The notes under the pieces were generated by a model. That model saw only the letters and a list, made by a program, of their open reading frames with translations. It did not search any database and had not been told where the DNA came from. A stretch of DNA of 64,000 nucleotides. Source: Patescibacteria group bacterium. Lineage in GTDB: Bacteria > Patescibacteriota > Microgenomatia > UBA1400 > PJMF01. Shown here one piece after another: positions 481-42,544 of the stretch (positions within the stretch are counted from its first letter, which is position 1; the number at the start of each line of letters is the position of its first letter). The stretch is from NCBI GenBank assembly GCA_016861205.1, contig BOKX01000001.1:392539-456538 (forward strand). Direction: 5' to 3'. The position numbers were made by a program, and so were the translations under genes.

Positions 481-1535
481 AGTATCTGTTTCGCCCCCTC
501 ATGATAACTGAGCTGTTTCAAGTGCACCACCCGTTTGGGGGTACGTAGTAGCTTCAGAATCTTTGGTGCATCCGCCTCTGCTGAAAAAGTAAACTCGTGC
601 AGAAGTGCCTGAACGTCTGGCAAGTATGGTTGTTTATTGCCGACAATTGTCGGCAGGCCGGCATTCAGCGCCTCGTAAACCGGAAAACCAAACCCCTCAT
701 ACACACTGGGAAATACAAACATTTTCGCGTCATGATACAGTCTAGCTAGCTTTGCCAAGGACACTTTGGGAAACCAATACAACCCTGGTGTAGCACGCAG
801 CTGATCCGACAATTCAAACAACTGGTTGCCATTGTGGCCAACCAACACCAGCTTGAGGTCAGGACGAGCTGCCAGAATTTTGGGCCACAACTCTAATAGA
901 TACATAATCCTTTTGTGCGGATAAAAAGCACTCACACACAGAATATAGTTGTCTGTGACCAACTTCGGTTCAGATGGTTTGGTAAGTAGAGTTAAAAACC
1001 ATTCATCGAGCCCCGGCAAAACAACTTTGATGCGTTCGCTCAAACTCGGAAAGTAGTGCTGCAGTCTCGCCTGTGAAAAAGGTGAGTCGGTCACAATCAG
1101 CTGACTGCGATGAGCAGACTGGGTAATCAAAAAGTTAAGTAGTTGATTCTGAAGCCAGGCCGTGTCTTCTGGATGGTCCTTCCAGTTTGCATCATGAATG
1201 GTCGTAACTTTTGCAAAGTTACCCCACAGTGGCCCAAAGTAACCATATGAATGGAGCACGGCACAACCAGCCGCAGACACCTTGAGGGGAAAGGCCACCT
1301 GCTCATACAGCAGTCTTGCAACTCTGGCTTTGCCAGATATGGGACACAAAACTTTTTTCCACTGAGGATGATCTACCGAAAAGGTCTCGAAGTTCTCTTT
1401 GTTACAAAAAAGTACAAACCTATGTTCAGTTTTGAGTTGTTGGAGATACTTCACGAACGATCGCAAGTGATACTCAGTTCCGCCCACTGCATTTGGAACT
1501 AGAAATAAGGCGTTAATACCAATTACTTTTTTCAT
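456..1535 (-). CDS. Glycosyltransferase family 4 (GT-B fold)
   Basis: 359 aa with the C-terminal 'VFPSVYEGFGFPVYEALNAGLPTIV' EX7E-like GT4 motif. It is co-directional with downstream glycosylation genes. Confidence 0.75.
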   Translation of the reverse strand: MKKVIGINALFLVPNAVGGTEYHLRSFVKYLQQLKTEHRFVLFCNKENFETFSVDHPQWKKVLCPISGKARVARLLYEQVAFPLKVSAAGCAVLHSYGYFGPLWGNFAKVTTIHDANWKDHPEDTAWLQNQLLNFLITQSAHRSQLIVTDSPFSQARLQHYFPSLSERIKVVLPGLDEWFLTLLTKPSEPKLVTDNYILCVSAFYPHKRIMYLLELWPKILAARPDLKLVLVGHNGNQLFELSDQLRATPGLYWFPKVSLAKLARLYHDAKMFVFPSVYEGFGFPVYEALNAGLPTIVGNKQPYLPDVQALLHEFTFSAEADAPKILKLLRTPKRVVHLKQLSYHEGAKQILQLLETLS

Positions 1536-2953
1536 GTTTCTTTAAACCAGTTATTCCATACTGGGCAGCTCAAAATGTAAAACCAAATTAAGGCAACGAG
1601 AAACATACTCATTCTCATGACTGACCCGCCGATTTGATCCCAAGTCACAAACACAAAACTAAAAATATACGTCCCAGTAAAGATCAAGATCAAAGTTGCC
1701 CAAATCGTGCCATTCATTACCAATAATCGATACCAGTTTTGATGTCGCAAATCATGCCATTGGACCGCCAGCCATGGTACAAACAGGTAATTAATTAGCG
1801 GCCAAACATAGGCCAGTAAGTACCGAAAAACTGCCAAAATATGGCTGCCTTGTGTACTCAATGGTTGGGTGAGAATGTGTAAATAACTGACCGGAATAAC
1901 TTGAGAAATAATTGACAGCAATTTAGTACCCAGATTGGTTTGTTGGCTCTGTTCATTGTTTGGCAAAGCTACTTGAACTGGTGACTGGCTTATCAAATAA
2001 ACCAAGTTGAGCCAGGCTCGCTTTGCTCCATATAAAACGAATACTCCTCCCACCGCAACGCTCCACGAGCGCTGCCTCAGTACTGCTATGGTCAACAAGC
2101 CAGCCCCTACTACCCAAAACGGCTCGCTCGACCGAACCCAGAGGCTCAAAGCCACCAGTAACGTACCTACCAACCAATCTCGGCTGGGTGTCTTCCTATC
2201 ACCGGCTAACCACAAATACACAATCCCCAAAGCTAAAAATGCACTATAAGCCAGATTGGTATAGGCGACCGTGGCATGTTCCAAAAAATGTGGCGAGTAG
2301 GCCAGTAGCACTGCCCCAAACAAGCTCACGCCTCGCGTTGTCCGTCTTCTCAGCAATGCATAAAAAGTGATGACGAACGACAGGTAGATCAGCGTGTACC
2401 AGACCTTAGCAGCTTGGAAACCTAGTGCATAGTTGGCTGCGTGCAGCAGCGAGGTGAATGGCGGATACTGAAAAAAGTAACCCAGAGTAAAACCTGATTT
2501 CCAACTCCCCTCAGCGATAAGAACCTTGGCCCGGAAATCATAGAGTGCTAACGCATCCCAATCAGTTACTGGCCAAACAACGTTGGGAATCAAGCTGAGC
2601 ACAACCGGAACTATCACCAGGACCACCAATATCTGCTGCCAGACCGGCAAGACAAAAAACTTGGTGATAAACGCCAACTCAAACCACCGTCCACCTTGAA
2701 GCTTGTAAAGCGTCCCCAGCGAGACCAGGTTGAAAATGAGAACCGCTCCAACCAGCTCAGCAGTAAATGGGATTCGCAGTCCCAGGTGCGCAGCCAATAA
2801 GACTATGGTCAACCACGCCGAACCAAGTAGACCAGCCAAACCCAGCCGTTCCCAATTGTGTGCAACCCCCAGCAATCGAGTTAACCACCAACCACTAAAC
2901 CAGGTACTACCAAATAAAAACCCGGCCGATAGTATCTGACTGATTGTGTTCAT
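1532..2953 (-). CDS. Polytopic integral membrane protein (possible polymerase/ligase or GT-C-like), function unknown
   Basis: 473 aa, with more than ten hydrophobic helices throughout. It is embedded in the glycosylation locus and overlaps its neighbour by 4 nt. Confidence 0.4.
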   Translation of the reverse strand: MNTISQILSAGFLFGSTWFSGWWLTRLLGVAHNWERLGLAGLLGSAWLTIVLLAAHLGLRIPFTAELVGAVLIFNLVSLGTLYKLQGGRWFELAFITKFFVLPVWQQILVVLVIVPVVLSLIPNVVWPVTDWDALALYDFRAKVLIAEGSWKSGFTLGYFFQYPPFTSLLHAANYALGFQAAKVWYTLIYLSFVITFYALLRRRTTRGVSLFGAVLLAYSPHFLEHATVAYTNLAYSAFLALGIVYLWLAGDRKTPSRDWLVGTLLVALSLWVRSSEPFWVVGAGLLTIAVLRQRSWSVAVGGVFVLYGAKRAWLNLVYLISQSPVQVALPNNEQSQQTNLGTKLLSIISQVIPVSYLHILTQPLSTQGSHILAVFRYLLAYVWPLINYLFVPWLAVQWHDLRHQNWYRLLVMNGTIWATLILIFTGTYIFSFVFVTWDQIGGSVMRMSMFLVALIWFYILSCPVWNNWFKET

Positions 2954-2983
2954 TCCCCCAATCGCTTTCCGATTATGTACATA

Positions 2984-3970
2984 TTATCGCTTTAATTTTA
3001 AAATGCCCCAAAAATCCTGATATTTTATGGGGTCGTAGCCCTCGTTTCTGATCAATGTTTCAGCTTGACTATCTCGATCAATAAATGACAGGAACTCAAC
3101 TTGCCTCGCAGGTATCGTGATCTTGGGCCAGCCACACTCAACATTGATACATTCACCCTTTGCAATAAGGATGTACTCAGCGTTTGGTGGAATTTGATTG
3201 TCAGCCATCATATGTACCAGACGACGTGGATAGAGGTACCACCGAAGATACTCAACATTCCCTTCCATCTTCCAGTCGTCGCTCTGTGGGGGAAGCACAA
3301 TGACCGCATTTTCGGGTGTTATCCTTTTTATAAACTGAGAGTAGGGCCAAATCCAACCGTAATAATGAACACCCCCCAGCTGCGATGTAATTCGTTCAAA
3401 GTAGGGCGTTGGTAGATTTTGAAGGGCTCGCACTGAGGTAGACAGCAGCTGGCTCATACCCAGTTGCAGTTGCCACACACCCACCGCGAGCATCAAAAGT
3501 GCCACCGCACTCCACAGCTTGATCTTGATGTATGGTCGCAAATCAAACTTGAGCGACCACCACAAGCCAACGGCTAGGAGTAACCACCTGAGTAAGTACC
3601 AAAAAGGCAATGTGATCAACCGGTGCAACTTTAACGTAAAAAACCACCCAGGAACATCAAAGCGGTAAATATTAACCACTAAGCATCCAACCTGAAATAC
3701 CAAGGCCAAAGCTACCCCACCTAACAACAGCCCTACTCCTTTTAAGAACCGGCTTTGCCAGCTGGTGGTTGTAAACTGCACACCACACACCAGTATCAAA
3801 ATAAGCGCGACTTGATATCCAGCCGCGACTGCTGGGTCAAAGGGATACTTAACAGCTGTCCACGTGTTTACACCGGCAAACAAACCGAAGATCAGCAAAA
3901 GCCACAGTGGCAGAGTCTTTTTGAGACCCGCTCCACCGTTCCTGGGCTGCGTTACTGTAACACTCGGCAT
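2984..3970 (-). CDS. Membrane protein with an N-terminal TM bundle and a C-terminal soluble domain, function unknown
   Basis: 328 aa. Several N-terminal hydrophobic helices are followed by a ~130 aa hydrophilic C-terminus. Confidence 0.35.
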   Translation of the reverse strand: MPSVTVTQPRNGGAGLKKTLPLWLLLIFGLFAGVNTWTAVKYPFDPAVAAGYQVALILILVCGVQFTTTSWQSRFLKGVGLLLGGVALALVFQVGCLVVNIYRFDVPGWFFTLKLHRLITLPFWYLLRWLLLAVGLWWSLKFDLRPYIKIKLWSAVALLMLAVGVWQLQLGMSQLLSTSVRALQNLPTPYFERITSQLGGVHYYGWIWPYSQFIKRITPENAVIVLPPQSDDWKMEGNVEYLRWYLYPRRLVHMMADNQIPPNAEYILIAKGECINVECGWPKITIPARQVEFLSFIDRDSQAETLIRNEGYDPIKYQDFWGILKLKR

Positions 3971-37019: not shown

Positions 37020-37958
37020 TTACTCAGGTTCAATCCAGCGATAGTGTTGCTTGAGCCAGTCAAGAATGGCAGAGGTATCACCATAACGATCACTACTACC
37101 CATTACCACGATAGCCACTTCGTGACCTTTAACATCGGCTATGCTGACCAACACCTCGCCTGCTAGCTCTGTAGTCCCTGTCTTCCCCGCTACGACACCT
37201 TTATCTGCCCCTAACAGTTGGTTCGTTGATCGCAACTGGTGCTGACGCTGTCCCGTGATGTCACTGATAGTGTACTGCTTCGTACTGAGTATCGGCCGCA
37301 CCACCTGATCTTGGCTAGCAATTCGTGCGAGTAGCGCCAAATCCCGAGCTGTAGTCAAATGGTTAGTTTGATCTAGACCAGACGGATTGGTAAAGTGAGT
37401 GTCCTTGAGCGACCACTCTTTAGCTGCTTGATTCATCGCCGCCACAAAGCCACTGTAACCAAGTTGATGGTGATTGGCTAAAGCAAACGCCGCATCATTT
37501 CCTGAAGTCATCAGTAAACCATAGAGCAAATTGTGAACAGTGAGTTGTTCACCGACTGTCAACTGCATGACAGTGCCTTGACTAAAAGCTTCTTCACCAA
37601 TGGTCACTATCTGATCAAGTGGATAAATATGTTTGGCAACCAAAGCCGTTAGCAACTTGGTGGTTGAGGCAGGTGACCGAGGCTGGGTGCTACTTTTTTC
37701 CAGCAAAATGCTGCCGCTCGCCACATCCTGCACCATCACAGCCTGAGCAGAAACAGATGGTGGAACTAGTTGTGCACCTGGAACATCAGGCACTGGCACC
37801 GGTGCGGGCTTTACCAAAGTTACTGTGTGTGACTGAGGTTGAAGTTCACTACCTGCTACAACCCAGTGAGTAGTCTTCGTTAGACCTGTAGCAGCCACGC
37901 AAGCTACAACCACCCCCAACGTTAACCACTGATCTGCGCGTAATCCAGCCATAACCAA
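37020..37958 (-). CDS. D-alanyl-D-alanine carboxypeptidase (S11 serine peptidase, PBP5-like)
   Basis: Signal/TM N-terminus plus the SxxK 'ASTTK', SxN 'TSGND' and KTG 'KTGTT' motifs. Confidence 0.8.
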   Translation of the reverse strand: MVMAGLRADQWLTLGVVVACVAATGLTKTTHWVVAGSELQPQSHTVTLVKPAPVPVPDVPGAQLVPPSVSAQAVMVQDVASGSILLEKSSTQPRSPASTTKLLTALVAKHIYPLDQIVTIGEEAFSQGTVMQLTVGEQLTVHNLLYGLLMTSGNDAAFALANHHQLGYSGFVAAMNQAAKEWSLKDTHFTNPSGLDQTNHLTTARDLALLARIASQDQVVRPILSTKQYTISDITGQRQHQLRSTNQLLGADKGVVAGKTGTTELAGEVLVSIADVKGHEVAIVVMGSSDRYGDTSAILDWLKQHYRWIEPE

Positions 37959-38019
37959 TCACTATTGTACTGGGTTTCGAACCGCTTTCACAATCCGGTT
38001 GGTAACAAACTGGATTCGG

Positions 38020-39438
38020 TTACTTGTTTATCACCTTCAGATGCAGTTCGGCCAGCTGCTCGTCAGTGACTGGGCTTGGGGCATCCATCACGGCGGTCCG
38101 GCCAGAGGCGGTCATTGGGAAAGCGATGACTTCTTTGAGTGAGGTTTCACCAGCCAACAGCATCACCATCCGGTCAAGACCTAACGCAATACCACCGTGC
38201 GGCGGGGTTCCCACTTCAAACGCGTCCAACATGTGGCCGACACTGTCACGAATTTCCTCATCCGAGTACCCCATGACTTTAAACGTTGCGGCCAACAACT
38301 CTGGTCGATGAGCGCGGATGCTGCCACCACCTACTTCATAACCGTTACAAACCAAGTCGTACTGCGTGGTCAAAATCTCGCCGATCTGCTCACCTTTCAG
38401 CAGCATCTCCTGGTGTTCAGGCAACGGTGCACTGAATGGATTATGAGTAAAGGTCCAACCACTCTTGCCATCACGAACTTCGGCTGCATCAGCCTTGTCT
38501 ACTTGTTTGAAGAATGGAAAGTTAACCACCCAGGCAAAAGCTAGAACGCCATTGGCTTTATCCTCTTCACTGCGCAAGTCGAAGCGGTCGGCACCATACT
38601 TGGCCATAGCATCTTGGTAATCAACCACTGGGAAGGTCTCAGCCTTGAGCTTGCCACCAACTGCCTTAACAGCCGACTTAACCATCGACTCCACTGTTTG
38701 CATGACGTCATCACGCTCGACGAAACTCAACTCTAAGTCGAGCTGGGTGAACTCAAAACCACGGTCAGCGCGCAAGTCTTCGTCACGGATGCACCGGGCA
38801 AACTGGAAGTACCGTTCAACACCAGCGGTCATCAACAGCTGCTTGTACTGTTGGGGACTCTGGGGCAAGGCATAAAACTTACCAGGTTGAAAACGACTCG
38901 GTACCACAAAGTCGCGGGCTCCTTCTTTGGTTGACTTGGTCAACATAGGGGTTTCGACTTCAGTAAAGTTTTGCTCGTATAGTGCTTCGCGCAAGGCCCG
39001 GAAGTAGTCTGATCGAAGCTTAACAATGTTACGCATCCGTTCGCGGCGAAGGTCTAAATAGCGGTAACGCAACCGGACTTCTTCACTAACTTCACGACCA
39101 TCACCCTCCACCAAAATGGGAAGCTCTTTGGCTGGATTCAAGATCTCATAAGCTTTGACCTCAAACTCAATATTGCCATTGATGACGTTGGCGTTGACCA
39201 ACTTAGCAGGTCGCTCTTTGACCAATCCTGTCACAGAAATAACTGACTCAGTGGTCAGTTCACCCATCATTTGAAAACCCACACACTGGAGCTTGCCAGT
39301 GCGGTCGCGCAAATCAATGAACGTTAACTTACCATGGTCACGTTTGGTATCTACCCAACCTACCAGGGTCACGGTCTGACCCAATTGCGAGGCCACTTGG
39401 CCAATTGGTAGTTGCTGGGTGGTTGTTGAACTGGTCAT
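38020..39438 (-). CDS. aspS: Aspartyl-tRNA synthetase, short form lacking the GAD insertion (likely non-discriminating)
   Basis: Class II motifs and 'FARCIRDEDLRADRGFEFTQLDLELSF', the AspRS signature. 472 aa, versus about 590 for the typical bacterial enzyme. Confidence 0.85.
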   Translation of the reverse strand: MTSSTTTQQLPIGQVASQLGQTVTLVGWVDTKRDHGKLTFIDLRDRTGKLQCVGFQMMGELTTESVISVTGLVKERPAKLVNANVINGNIEFEVKAYEILNPAKELPILVEGDGREVSEEVRLRYRYLDLRRERMRNIVKLRSDYFRALREALYEQNFTEVETPMLTKSTKEGARDFVVPSRFQPGKFYALPQSPQQYKQLLMTAGVERYFQFARCIRDEDLRADRGFEFTQLDLELSFVERDDVMQTVESMVKSAVKAVGGKLKAETFPVVDYQDAMAKYGADRFDLRSEEDKANGVLAFAWVVNFPFFKQVDKADAAEVRDGKSGWTFTHNPFSAPLPEHQEMLLKGEQIGEILTTQYDLVCNGYEVGGGSIRAHRPELLAATFKVMGYSDEEIRDSVGHMLDAFEVGTPPHGGIALGLDRMVMLLAGETSLKEVIAFPMTASGRTAVMDAPSPVTDEQLAELHLKVINK

Positions 39439-39700
39439 ACAACTCCTTGTCCCGCCAGTAGCGGGGCTTTATATAAAATAATGTTTCTAACGAGCTACAA
39501 AAAAAGCCCTCTCGTTTTAACCAACCTGGCTAAAACGAAAAGGCTTTCTCAATTGCTTGAGAAAAGGTGCCAACCTCTTCACTACTTATTTCCAGCGATT
39601 TCGGGCTTACCCGCTTAGTTGCTCGGGGTTGTCAGGCCCAAGTAGATCAAGTCAAACTCGATCAATGACTACGCCCGTAAGTATATCACAATTTTTTTGG

Positions 39701-39728
39701 TTGACATATATGTTTATTTCGCTAAAAT
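39701..39728 (+). promoter_or_regulatory. Sigma70-like promoter (TTGACA-16-TAAAAT)
   Basis: Consensus -35 at 39701-39706 and near-consensus -10 at 39723-39728, inside a 430-bp AT-rich intergenic region. Confidence 0.5.
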
Positions 39729-39736
39729 AGCTCTTT

Positions 39737-39866
39737 GGTATGTATCAAATGCATCACACCACTACCCGTCAAGTCTTTGCCCTTATTTGGACCCAAGGGC
39801 GGGTGTGTAGTGCAGCGTAAGTAAAAAAAAGCACAAACAACACCCCGCCACACCGGCGGGGTTTTT
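39737..39866 (+). promoter_or_regulatory. Approximately 130-nt structured leader ending in an intrinsic terminator immediately 5' of the start codon (attenuator/riboswitch-like)
   Basis: Hairpin GCCCTT..AAGGGC (approx. 39780-39801) sits upstream of the terminator. The upstream 'GGGCGGGTGTG' is a potential anti-terminator partner for the terminator 5' arm. Confidence 0.4.
39843..39866 (+). terminator. Rho-independent terminator hairpin CCCCGCC-acac-GGCGGGG followed by TTTTT
   Basis: Perfect 7-bp GC-rich stem with a 4-nt loop and a U5 tract. It ends 5 nt before the ATG at 39871. Confidence 0.6.
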
Positions 39867-39870
39867 GGTT

Positions 39871-40575
39871 ATGGCACGAACAAACACTGAACAACGACGC
39901 TACATGGACCTGCTCACTGCAGGTGTCATGGTGGGATTCGCTGAACTAGTCGGTCAGTATTTTTGTGGTGCAACTTCAACAACTGAGTTTGTAAACTTAT
40001 TTAACGAGCGATTTGAAGGCCCAGCTGATACATACTACCAAACTGGTCGCCGGTTACATTTCGATCCATGGGAGATTGCTGAGTCTGGTAAGATTTCCTG
40101 TTTTGCTTCTGCCTTTTTGATGGGTCTTTGGAGTCGGGCCACTTTTCTGGGTAATCCCGACATGTATCCAAGCTATATTGTGCAGGACCTCTATCCCAGT
40201 GATGATCCAAGAATCGCAAAAACCCCGATCCAAAAATCCCATGAGGTACACGGTGTTGTCAAAATTAATGGGACGTTGTATCAACAGTGGCGGAATAAAG
40301 ATCGTGTATGGTTCGAACAAATTATGAAACCGACAGCGGTCAACACAATCCATCAAAACAGCGATCAAGCTATCACTAGCTGTCGATTTGTAGCCAGCCG
40401 CTTGAGCCGATTCCCGTTGCAAAAATCCCGCGCTGAGCTGGCACTGCGCGTTGCCAACCAGCGTAGCCTCGAGCGATACCGCAACGATTTTTCAAATCTG
40501 TTACATGAAGTGCTACTACCAATTATCTACGAAGCTGCCGAACAGAAAGGGCCAAATCACTATGCCAGTCGTTAA
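39871..40575 (+). CDS. Hypothetical protein (Cys..His pair compatible with a papain-like/CHAP-like hydrolase fold; speculative)
   Basis: 234 aa taken from the ATG at 39871; the ORF track uses an upstream TTG. 'GKISCFASAFLMGLW' and 'KSHEVHGVVKINGTLY' lie about 56 aa apart. No TM segment. Confidence 0.45.
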   Translation: MARTNTEQRRYMDLLTAGVMVGFAELVGQYFCGATSTTEFVNLFNERFEGPADTYYQTGRRLHFDPWEIAESGKISCFASAFLMGLWSRATFLGNPDMYPSYIVQDLYPSDDPRIAKTPIQKSHEVHGVVKINGTLYQQWRNKDRVWFEQIMKPTAVNTIHQNSDQAITSCRFVASRLSRFPLQKSRAELALRVANQRSLERYRNDFSNLLHEVLLPIIYEAAEQKGPNHYASR

Positions 40576-40876
40576 AGACAAGCAATACTATATCGATGTA
40601 CTGACCGCCAGACAGGCCATCATCCAAAGGAAGCGCTATAACCAAGCGGCTTTGAATGAGATTCACGAATCCGAGATCAGTGGCGGTATTGACGAAAAAA
40701 CCAACCAAGTGATCGCGTTTTGGCAAGCTGTCGCTGAGCTAACTGGCTCGGCTACCAACACCATCCAGTTTGCGACGTACTTCTACGAGCATATCTATAA
40801 GGGACAAATTGACTTGGAACTGCTGGCTCTGGAAACTTACCGCTTACAAGTGCTCACCCAACCGGCTGAGGCGTAA
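40562..40876 (+). CDS. Small hypothetical protein co-transcribed with the upstream gene
   Basis: 104 aa from M38 of the ORF-track ORF, with an AAAGGG SD-like sequence about 10 nt upstream. It overlaps the upstream stop by 14 nt and the recJ 3' end by 33 nt (convergent). Confidence 0.4.
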   Translation: MPVVKDKQYYIDVLTARQAIIQRKRYNQAALNEIHESEISGGIDEKTNQVIAFWQAVAELTGSATNTIQFATYFYEHIYKGQIDLELLALETYRLQVLTQPAEA

Positions 40877-42544
40877 ATCTTTGATCATCAATTGGAGCGA
40901 CTGGCGACCTTGCCACTCGTTCCACTCGAGGGCTGCCGCCACATCAATCTGGTTACCAGCTTTGAGCTCTTCAGCTAAATCAGCTTTGCCCCAAGCCAGG
41001 GCCGTCACTGGTTGCGACTGAGTTGGAACCGCTAGTTTTAAACGCAGATGCTGCTTGTCACTGCCAAAGGTTTCCACTTTGGTCAGCGCTAGTTTCTGCC
41101 ACCCAAAAACTGGTTGTGGATTTCCGGCTCCAAATGGCTCAAAAGTAGCTACCTCATCGGCGAGTTCAGCTGTGACAAGATCGGCAGGCAAGTAGGCTTC
41201 CAGCTCAAGGCCGGGCACTAACCATTCTGGCTGGACACGCTCGCGAGCCAAGGTATGCAGCTGATCGGTTACGATCTTGATCTTACTCACCTCCAAACTA
41301 AAACCTGCCGCCATCGGATGACCACCGACCTCCAGCAAATCGTGACGAACTTGCCGGATGAGTTCCACTACATTAACTTGACTGATTGAACGAGCGGACG
41401 CTTTGGCTGTTGATTCACCCACCGCAATCACAATGGTGGGTTTGGCATACTCCTCCATCAACCGGCCAGCCAGTAAACCGATCACCCCTTCGTGATACTC
41501 AGTCGAGGCAACCACCAAAACACGTTCGGCTGCCTGGGCTTCTGCTGCTAGGCGAGCAGTTGTTAGCCACTGTGCCGTCAGTTCCTGCCGCCGTGAGTTC
41601 ATGTCAGAAATTACCTGCGTAAGTTGCCGTGCTCGATCACGATTGGTGGTACACAGGAGACGCAAGGCATCGAGGCCATGAGCAAGCCGACCCATGGCAT
41701 TCAAACGGGGTGCTAAACCAAAGTTAATGGTGGTCGTGGTAATTGTGGAAGGTGCCACATTGGCCCATGTCATCAAACTTTGCAAACCAACGCGCTCGCT
41801 CCGTCGGAGAGCAGGCAAGCCATGGACAACAAAACTGCGATTGGCACCAAGTAGAGGTACTTGATCGGCAACAGTAGCCAAAACAGTAAGGTCTAAACCG
41901 AGCTTGGTATCGGTACTTGGATCGTAGTCGTCAAGAAAGCGTCGTTTTATGGCTTGCGCTAAAAACCACGCTACCGTGCAACCACACAGCTTCGTGCTAT
42001 GCACTACAGCTAAGGCCGGTGGATAACCAGCATCTTCTGGTTGATGGTGATCACTCACGATCACATCAACTCCGGCTTCAGCCAGCCGGGTCAAAGACGC
42101 ATGGGCAACGATACCATTATCAGCCGTGATGATCAGACTTGGTCGAGAGGCACCAGCTAATACTTCGTCAACTGCCCGGGTGGACAGTCCGTAGCCGTGT
42201 TTCTCCCGATGCGGGATAAAGGGCTGCGCTGTGATTCCAATCGCTTGCAACGCTTCCCACATGACAGCGGTAGCGGTGATTCCATCAACATCATAGTCAC
42301 CGAACACCAGAACTGATTCCTGCTGCTGTCGAGCTTGCTCAATTCGATCCAAGGCAACCGTGACCTGAGCCTCATCGATCCCAACTTCACCGAGCTGCAT
42401 CTCAACAGGAGACCGTGGTGAAAAAAAACTTGGCTCGTCACTCACACCGCGATTAACCAATAACAACTTATGGATCTCGGCCATGGTTGTTGGCTGCTTG
42501 TCACTTTTGGCCAGCCAACGCCTGGAGTTTTGGGACGAATTCAT
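40844..42544 (-). CDS. recJ: Single-stranded-DNA-specific exonuclease RecJ (DHH/DHHA1)
   Basis: Carries 'LVFGDYDVDGITATAV', 'IITADNG' and 'VIVSDHHQP' DHH motifs. Confidence 0.85.
   Translation of the reverse strand: MNSSQNSRRWLAKSDKQPTTMAEIHKLLLVNRGVSDEPSFFSPRSPVEMQLGEVGIDEAQVTVALDRIEQARQQQESVLVFGDYDVDGITATAVMWEALQAIGITAQPFIPHREKHGYGLSTRAVDEVLAGASRPSLIITADNGIVAHASLTRLAEAGVDVIVSDHHQPEDAGYPPALAVVHSTKLCGCTVAWFLAQAIKRRFLDDYDPSTDTKLGLDLTVLATVADQVPLLGANRSFVVHGLPALRRSERVGLQSLMTWANVAPSTITTTTINFGLAPRLNAMGRLAHGLDALRLLCTTNRDRARQLTQVISDMNSRRQELTAQWLTTARLAAEAQAAERVLVVASTEYHEGVIGLLAGRLMEEYAKPTIVIAVGESTAKASARSISQVNVVELIRQVRHDLLEVGGHPMAAGFSLEVSKIKIVTDQLHTLARERVQPEWLVPGLELEAYLPADLVTAELADEVATFEPFGAGNPQPVFGWQKLALTKVETFGSDKQHLRLKLAVPTQSQPVTALAWGKADLAEELKAGNQIDVAAALEWNEWQGRQSLQLMIKDLRLSRLGEHL

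Follow-up and report, generated by a model that had tools for sequence, protein, structure and literature searches.

The window analysed here is a 64-kb stretch of a Patescibacteria genome (Candidate Phyla Radiation, CPR; contig BOKX01000001.1). Between its aspartyl-tRNA synthetase (AspRS) gene aspS and two uncharacterised genes, denoted A and B, lies a leader of ~130 nucleotides (nt) that runs from a promoter to an intrinsic terminator. This leader is best read as a ribosome-mediated, trp-type three-hairpin leader-peptide transcription attenuator, in which the sensor would be the ribosome on a short open reading frame (ORF), and we consider that this reading is probably correct. The translating ribosome is the most likely sensor because the short ORF, which is conserved and predicted to be near-leaderless, covers both pairing segments. 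What the leader controls is most likely an uncharacterised two-gene operon consisting of genes A and B. Sequence comparison shows the parts of the element and that they are conserved, that both alternative pairings co-vary and that the open frame is maintained by selection.

The components of the leader are listed in Table 1. A preliminary description of this DNA had reported a near-consensus promoter, a leader of this length, an intrinsic terminator and the ATG of a nearby ORF, all of which are confirmed in the sequence; the promoter is also the top-ranking promoter-like site within 37500-42000. The terminator hairpin is as described, although its loop has 5 nt (ACACC) and not 4, and the U tract does adjoin the ATG, at a distance of 4 nt rather than 5. 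GCCCTT and AAGGGC can indeed form an alternative hairpin, and the stretch that follows them can, as suggested, pair with the 5' arm of the terminator: GGGCGGGUGUGU, which follows AAGGGC, can form a duplex of -21.9 kcal/mol with ACACCCCGCC, interrupted by a single bulge. The short ORF was absent from that description. By itself the single sequence of the window proves nothing. Promoter-like sites are not enriched in the stretch (5 observed, 3.4 expected) and the fold of the window leader alone is unexceptional (z -1.8); the case therefore rests on other genomes, and it is recurrence that lifts the element above chance.

Loci for comparison were gathered from contigs encoding gene A relatives, together with aspS loci searched with a profile of the leader. 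Conservation of the leader in related genomes, a check that the preliminary description had called for, was found in 15 diverged loci (the window itself, L029, L083, L084, L086-L089, L091-L093, L005, L009, L012 and L043), in most of which the leader stands upstream of the gene A family. The same succession of near-consensus promoter, short ORF, long imperfect hairpin, A-rich linker and GC-rich terminator hairpin is present in every locus (15/15). A TTGACA-like -35 box and a TAnnnT-like -10 box with a spacing of 16-18 nt occupy the same position throughout, and the -35 box is exactly TTGACA in 10/15. In all 15 the GC-rich hairpin is followed by U5-U7, and its arms differ in sequence between loci yet stay complementary. 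The ATG of the next gene lies 0-17 nt past the U tract in 10/15 loci, which leaves no space for a separate promoter, and no further promoter-like site for the next gene was found. Together with the co-variation of the antiterminator (see below), this supports the earlier proposal that a mutually exclusive terminator and antiterminator control read-through.

The leader is 100% identical in three further assemblies of the same species. In L088 and L093 it is separated from the gene A homologue by a gene of ~100 amino acids. When all the DNA gathered was scanned blind, 253 terminator-like sites were checked for a short ORF as well as pairing of segment 1 with segment 2 and of segment 2 with segment 3 (Table 1), and the scan returned these loci and only two unconvincing extras. 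A DNA-pattern scan of metagenome contigs (TACCCGTNNNNTCTTTGNCCTTAT) gave two chance matches within coding sequence and no leader. We have very little doubt that the element is real and conserved.

Three alternative structures, denoted 1:2, 2:3 and 3:4 after the segments involved, are predicted in every locus. In the minimum-energy folds of all 15 leaders, codons ~5-11 of the short ORF are paired with its last codons. The two halves of the short ORF thereby form a long, imperfect hairpin around an apical hairpin of the CCUU/AAGG type (P2). Compared with dinucleotide shuffles, this hairpin region has a mean z of -1.85 over the 15 leaders (t-test p 4e-5). P2 is recovered by RNAalifold with some compensatory changes; its stem lies just 5' of a run of G residues and the sequence of its loop is unconserved. 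In a 10-sequence alignment, invariant bases are located in the stem of P2, in the run of G residues, in the arms of the terminator and in the U tract.

Because the register of the 1:2 pairing shifts between species and column covariation failed, co-variation was assessed by comparing the duplex energies of cognate and non-cognate partners, a test which is alignment-free and is not inflated by shared ancestry. For the antiterminator (2:3), the last 9 codons and stop codon of the short ORF paired with 12 nt of linker and the terminator 5' arm at a mean of -17.8 kcal/mol for cognate partners, vs -13.2 kcal/mol for non-cognate ones (the cognate mean was reached in 0/20000 permutations). The signal persists when the segment 2 region is paired with the terminator 5' arm only (-10.1 vs -8.6 kcal/mol; 2/20000), or with the 14 nt of linker outside the stem (-6.6 vs -5.5 kcal/mol; 340/20000). 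The controls, in which the first 30 nt of the short ORF were used, showed no effect, with -2.79 vs -2.69 kcal/mol against the linker (7322/20000) and -2.97 vs -3.21 kcal/mol against the linker with the 5' arm (14663/20000). Segment 1 against segment 2 gave -16.6 vs -14.7 kcal/mol (141/20000). By eye, the core of segment 2 mirrors the terminator 3' arm species by species (GGCGGGG, AGCGGG, GGUGGGG, GAGGGG, GAUGGGGGC, GGGAGG).

Mean energies are -21 kcal/mol for the hairpin, -18 kcal/mol for the antiterminator and -11 kcal/mol for the terminator, which is the hierarchy of stability that a three-state attenuator needs. The antiterminator strand of segment 2 ends between -6 and +2 nt from the stop codon in 15/15 loci. 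A ribosome shields roughly 15 nt upstream of its P site, and the end of segment 2 falls within this distance. We regard a terminator/antiterminator/anti-antiterminator geometry as highly likely.

An ATG-initiated short ORF of 21-32 codons is found in 15/15 loci. Its ATG is placed 8-13 nt past the -10 box in 13/15; the distance is 6-9 nt in L009 and amounts to 20 nt in L043. For 11 loci the distance was also taken from TTGAC, and here the ATG lies 37-41 nt from the start of the -35 box. Judging from this promoter geometry, the 5' untranslated region would be expected to have 0-6 nt, i.e. to be near-leaderless and too short to hold a Shine-Dalgarno sequence. The short-ORF frame contains no stop in its 381 codons, vs 20 and 17 stops in the two alternative frames, and it is open in all 15 loci, vs 4/15 and 6/15 for the alternatives. 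The chance of an open frame estimated from base composition is 0.14-0.43 per locus, with a product of 7e-10 which overstates the independence of the 15 loci, since they are related. They are diverged enough, all the same, for the short ORF to differ in length and even in frame. The spacing between the homologous motifs ACCCGU and GCGGGU is 29 nt in the window vs 27 nt in L029, and segment 2 is therefore read in different frames in the two; despite this, both short ORFs are open and stop 12-13 nt past GCGGGU. The stop codon lies 22-37 nt 5' of the terminator stem in all loci. Selection appears to act on translation itself, the peptide sequence showing no conservation beyond the nucleotide level.

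Two further motifs are seen towards the end of the short ORF. Immediately 5' of the G-run, all 15 leaders carry a conserved Shine-Dalgarno-like stretch of purines (AAGG, GGAG or GAGG; 39795-39803 in the window), and an in-frame (A/G)UG-GUU-NNN-stop recurs at the end of many of the short ORFs (39804-39820 in the window). Both probably result incidentally from base pairing (ACCAU with AUGGU).

Table 1. Coordinates of the leader, its parts and the neighbouring genes in the window.
Feature	Position	Strand	Remarks
Sigma-70-type promoter	39701-39728	+	-35 TTGACA 39701-39706, 16-nt spacer, -10 TAAAAT 39723-39728; 11/12 consensus positions
Leader short ORF	39740-39820	+	26 codons (MYQMHHTTTRQVFALIWTQGRVCSAA) and TAA; ATG 11 nt past the -10 box
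Segment 1 (CACACCACUACCCG)	39755-39768	+	Anti-antiterminator 5' strand; short-ORF codons about 4-11
Apical hairpin P2	39779-39800	+	GCCCUU 39779-84, loop AUUUGGACCC, AAGGGC 39795-800
Segment 2 (GGGCGGGUGUGUAGUGCAG)	39797-39815	+	Pairs with segment 1 or segment 3; ends 3-4 nt before the stop codon
A-rich unstructured linker	39821-39839	+	From stop codon to segment 3; A-rich in all loci
Segment 3 (ACACCCCGCC)	39840-39849	+	Last linker bases and terminator 5' arm; antiterminator 3' strand
Intrinsic terminator	39842-39866	+	ACCCCGCC, loop ACACC, GGCGGGGU, U5; hairpin -15 kcal/mol
Terminator 5' arm CCCCGCC	39843-39849	+
Terminator loop ACACC	39850-39854	+	5 nt
Terminator 3' arm GGCGGGG	39855-39861	+
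U tract (T5)	39862-39866	+	Ends 4 nt 5' of gene A ATG
Gene A	39871-40575	+	234-amino-acid orphan protein; ATG at 39871
Gene B	40562-40876	+	104-amino-acid small acidic partner; overlaps gene A end by 14 nt and recJ 3' end by 33 nt
aspS	38020-39438	-	Divergent from the leader
recJ	40844-42544	-	Convergent with genes A and B

The switch that we propose would operate as follows. Transcription would start a few bases 5' of the short ORF, and the terminator 3' arm would act as segment 4, the terminator being 3:4. Without a ribosome, segments 1 and 2 would pair, 3:4 would form and transcription would stop at the U tract (OFF). A ribosome keeping pace as far as the stop codon would cover segment 2, and 3:4 would again form (OFF). 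A ribosome delayed on codons ~3-12 would instead mask segment 1 and leave segment 2 free to pair with segment 3, so that the terminator would be blocked and RNA polymerase would enter genes A and B (ON). The ON state would also free the G-rich 3' arm at the expected ribosome-binding site of gene A. This arm lies 10-16 nt 5' of the gene A ATG, the position of a ribosome-binding site, and the terminator hairpin may also hide that site in transcripts which have read through.

We infer both this three-state logic and the signal to which it would respond. The signal is most likely slowed translation, resulting from amino-acid shortage or translation stress, which is favoured since the leaders have no specific codon run in common; sensing of a specific amino acid would be a less economical explanation. 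A more ambitious version, which we put forward tentatively and think somewhat doubtful, is that the element is a codon-agnostic and Patescibacteria-specific sensor of translation pace. The leading ribosome would be measured against RNA polymerase, and a lineage-specific, fast-evolving two-gene module would be turned on when translation slows, e.g. when a host-dependent supply of amino acids fails. If this were true, the intergenic region of ~430 bp between aspS and the genes served by the attenuator would hold two different sensors of translation status, the second being the divergent T-box-like leader of aspS described below.

Several observations weigh against control by a translating ribosome. 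The start of transcription and the translation of the short ORF are both deduced from the DNA. Similarity between the encoded peptides is not higher in the short-ORF frame (BLOSUM mean 5.6) than in the other two frames (5.1 and 6.4), and the evidence for the ORF therefore consists of its openness and position only, the former carrying the reservation about related loci given above. The 15 leader peptides share no run of codons for a single amino acid: TTT (Thr x3) is found in the window and TIIT or IIIV in others, while L043 has none. Thr, Ile and His codons are in excess in segment 1, but this can be put down to its pairing with segment 2, which is rich in G and U. Column-wise covariation for segments 1 and 2 was not obtained, since MAFFT with RNAalifold, run on 10, 15 and 6 leaders with the terminator arms out of register, gave only P2 and the terminator. 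The leaders of L005, L009, L012 and L043 precede genes outside the gene A family, and the element in L005 is directed towards aspS with ~560 nt between them. L083 is a weak member, with an antiterminator of only -11.5 kcal/mol.

Two narrower interpretations of the short ORF were tried and set aside. A functional small protein was rejected as the principal explanation, as the peptides resemble one another no more closely when read in this frame than in the other two. Amino-acid-specific sensing of Thr, Ile or His is unsupported; there is no amino acid common to all 15 leader peptides and no Cys run among them, and the codon bias follows the complementarity to segment 2. Rare codons, clustered or single, were also sought in the short ORF of the window, and none was found.

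Three alternatives to ribosome-mediated attenuation have to be weighed. The one that survives best, which we nevertheless think unlikely, is that the leader is a gene in its own right, i.e. an independent small RNA of ~130 nt, as the preliminary description had offered, or a gene for a protein of 26 amino acids, with read-through incidental, or else that the terminated leader has an added function in trans. Its promoter and terminator are strong and conserved, and conservation of the leader greatly exceeds that of gene A, with ~71-76% DNA identity between the window and L029 vs 23% identity for the gene A proteins. The element is also present without the gene A family in the four loci named above. 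Attenuator-derived small RNAs and leader peptides with functions in trans have been documented, as outlined for rnTrpL and peTrpL of Sinorhizobium meliloti (PMC6614838, PMC7298713), and a role in trans would fit both the high conservation of the leader and its presence before unrelated genes. An independent gene, on the other hand, would not explain why the end of the short ORF co-varies with the terminator 5' arm and linker, or why the next start codon follows the U tract so closely, with no promoter of its own, in 10/15 loci, and its peptide shows no selection at the amino-acid level. The promoter and terminator of a small RNA are in place, and the idea is weakened by the apparent dependence of the next gene on the same promoter in most loci.

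A translation-independent attenuator is the next alternative, and in our view an improbable one. A ligand, a protein (e.g. the product of gene A or B, acting in autoregulation) or an RNA would shift the 1:2 hairpin, and the short ORF would be incidental. The three alternative pairings would also serve such a switch, base conservation is highest in the stem of P2 (CCUU/AAGG) and in the run of G residues, and no selection is visible on the peptide sequence. The P2 and internal loops, however, vary freely in length and sequence (AUUUGGACCC, AUU, UUUG, CAAUUU, AAG and others), and no conserved binding pocket is therefore visible. Rfam 15 gives no family at gathering threshold for the leader, either in the window or in 16 related loci. 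For the ligand-binding riboswitch suggested in the preliminary description, there is thus neither a family at threshold nor a visible conserved aptamer core; the same description had recognised no known riboswitch class in the element, and this holds, as none appears at gathering thresholds in the window and the 16 loci, or at E up to 10 over 39380-39950. A translation-independent switch would also leave unexplained the near-fixed spacing between the -10 box and the ATG, the open frame in 15/15 loci and the position of the stop codon within 6 nt of the end of segment 2.

The last alternative, that a promoter-like site stands by chance next to an ordinary terminator and the two regulate nothing, is allowed by the promoter count and leader fold of the window, and is nonetheless extremely improbable, as the recurrence of the whole architecture in 15 diverged loci with co-varying pairings already contradicts it, and as the divergent orientation of aspS leaves no upstream gene on the same strand for the terminator to serve.

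Ribosome-mediated attenuation, the preferred reading, has its closest parallel in the classical amino-acid leaders (trpL, hisL, pheL, thrL, leuL and ilv; RF00513, RF00514, RF01859 and related families), which like the element combine a leader short ORF with 1:2, 2:3 and 3:4 hairpins, and in which the position of the ribosome decides the outcome, as is proposed here. The best sub-threshold Rfam matches over 39380-39950 (E up to 10) are to leaders of this kind (Trp, 22.5 vs a threshold of 41; His, 19 vs 49; Phe, 19.2 vs 55), and these matches are carried by the terminator. There are also differences. Classical leaders have a run of regulatory codons, and biosynthetic enzymes are encoded downstream, whereas the element has no such run and is followed by an uncharacterised Cys/His protein family and a small acidic protein. 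The classical short ORF stops between segments 1 and 2; that of the element spans both and stops after segment 2. It also apparently begins only a few bases from the 5' end of the transcript, unlike those of classical leaders.

Attenuators responding to antibiotics or translation stress through a leader peptide (ermK, cat, and the ABC-F genes vmlR and lmo0919) likewise do without an amino-acid-specific run, and any stall flips the terminator to the antiterminator. They control recognisable resistance genes and often encode conserved arrest peptides. In contrast, the proteins regulated by the element match no known family, its peptide is unconserved beyond the nucleotide level and no resistance gene follows. 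Riboswitches of the terminator/antiterminator type and T-box leaders share the geometry of its expression platform. The element differs from them in lacking a conserved aptamer, a UGGN-ACC motif and any match to Rfam at gathering threshold.

Leader peptides have been described in Corynebacterium glutamicum upstream of trpE, leuA, ilvB and aroF (PMC3890552). In Mycobacterium smegmatis, as outlined in a preprint, leaderless polycysteine short ORFs sense cysteine through runs of Cys codons and unmask a ribosome-binding site (bioRxiv 10.1101/834739). In these mycobacterial attenuators, as in the element, the sensory short ORF is the first cistron at or near the 5' end, although the leaderless start is here predicted from promoter geometry, and in both a stalled ribosome would prevent an inhibitory RNA structure. 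The element differs from the mycobacterial Cys type in its canonical intrinsic terminator with U5-U7, the lack of a codon run and its Patescibacteria host.

Gene regulation in Patescibacteria has barely been explored, and the attenuator is a concrete and testable regulatory element in this group, which points to a two-gene module under tight conditional control. If ribosome-mediated control is correct, near-leaderless attenuation by a leader peptide free of codon runs exists outside Actinobacteria and Firmicutes. The attenuator could also serve as a native expression switch in genetic tools for cultivated Patescibacteria. A search of one library of papers for Patescibacteria together with transcription attenuation or T-box control found none linking them.

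The proteins encoded downstream of the leader resemble little that is known. Genes A and B have no match in Pfam, NCBIfam or among PDB sequences, and gene A has none in PHROGs or PADLOC. A word-indexed protein search with gene A and its L029 homologue matched each only to itself, and an exhaustive search with a profile of the two against 1.84 billion representative proteins gave ~10 relatives of 160-217 amino acids. An alignment of this family has F44, P66, C77, W87 and H124 as invariant residues. The AlphaFold model of gene A is of moderate quality (pLDDT 69, pTM 0.69) and had no Foldseek match in PDB. Gene B is among the genes predicted in L096, a locus from the same species, and a small ORF stands next to the gene A homologues in most loci. 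A homologue of gene B lies downstream of gene A in L089 and upstream of it in L093, and the two (L089_B and L093_up) share 31% identity (E 1e-10). In L092 a mini-ORF of 7 codons (ATGCAGAATGAGAGTGAATTATGA; 2981-3004) follows the U tract and precedes the gene A homologue, whose start codon overlaps the stop codon of the mini-ORF as ATGA.

The wider setting of the leader is that of a Patescibacteria genome. The closest relatives of the window AspRS (up to 74% identity) all come from Patescibacteria metagenome-assembled genomes, and a gene for a CCA-adding enzyme follows recJ. At gathering threshold, Rfam finds a single tRNA in the window and no other match. A second copy of the leader was sought across all 64 kb and none was found. 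A promoter-like site for aspS lies on the minus strand at 39680-39707 and has ATGTCA, a 16-nt spacer and TATACT, together with a TG extension. It overlaps the leader promoter at the -35 box, and the divergent transcripts therefore share a promoter core of ~30 bp.

Back-to-back with the attenuator, on the minus strand at 39439-39680, is a T-box-like leader of aspS (fold z -4.8). It has a hairpin with the loop CCUGACAAC, containing the Asp codon GAC, on a co-varying stem, followed by a CGGGUAAGCCCG hairpin and then by AAGAGG-UUGGCAC-CUUUUC. The UGGC within this last motif fits the GCCA end expected for tRNA-Asp, and for its AAGAGG/CUUUUC flanks pairing is possible with the 5' arm of a terminator of 20 bp (39547-39503, then U7). 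The leader is conserved in 8 Patescibacteria loci, four of them with the classical GGUGGCACC, and their alignment has 41 consensus pairs, 11 of which show compensatory changes. The Rfam T-box model did not match the aspS leader even at E up to 10. In the window an insertion of ~45 nt (about 39446-39495) is located between this terminator and the aspS Shine-Dalgarno sequence; it contains a GC-rich hairpin at 39449-39467 (GTCCCGCCAGTAGCGGGGC then TTTATAT on the plus strand) and is absent from the seven other aligned aspS leaders.

Insertions are also seen near the element in other loci. In L029, the closest relative, a two-gene insertion (922-1601, minus strand) separates the aspS leader from the attenuator, and its genes, judged by eye, encode an AbrB/MazE-like protein of 93 amino acids and a Doc/Fic-like protein of 133 amino acids with an FLDGNKRT motif. 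In L005 two repeated units occupy positions 3200-3640, between the leader-like element and aspS. Each unit comprises GGTGCAAAGCGC, a strong Shine-Dalgarno sequence, a Lys/Arg-rich mini-ORF (e.g. MKKDKKKKRGHKKKH) and a GC hairpin.

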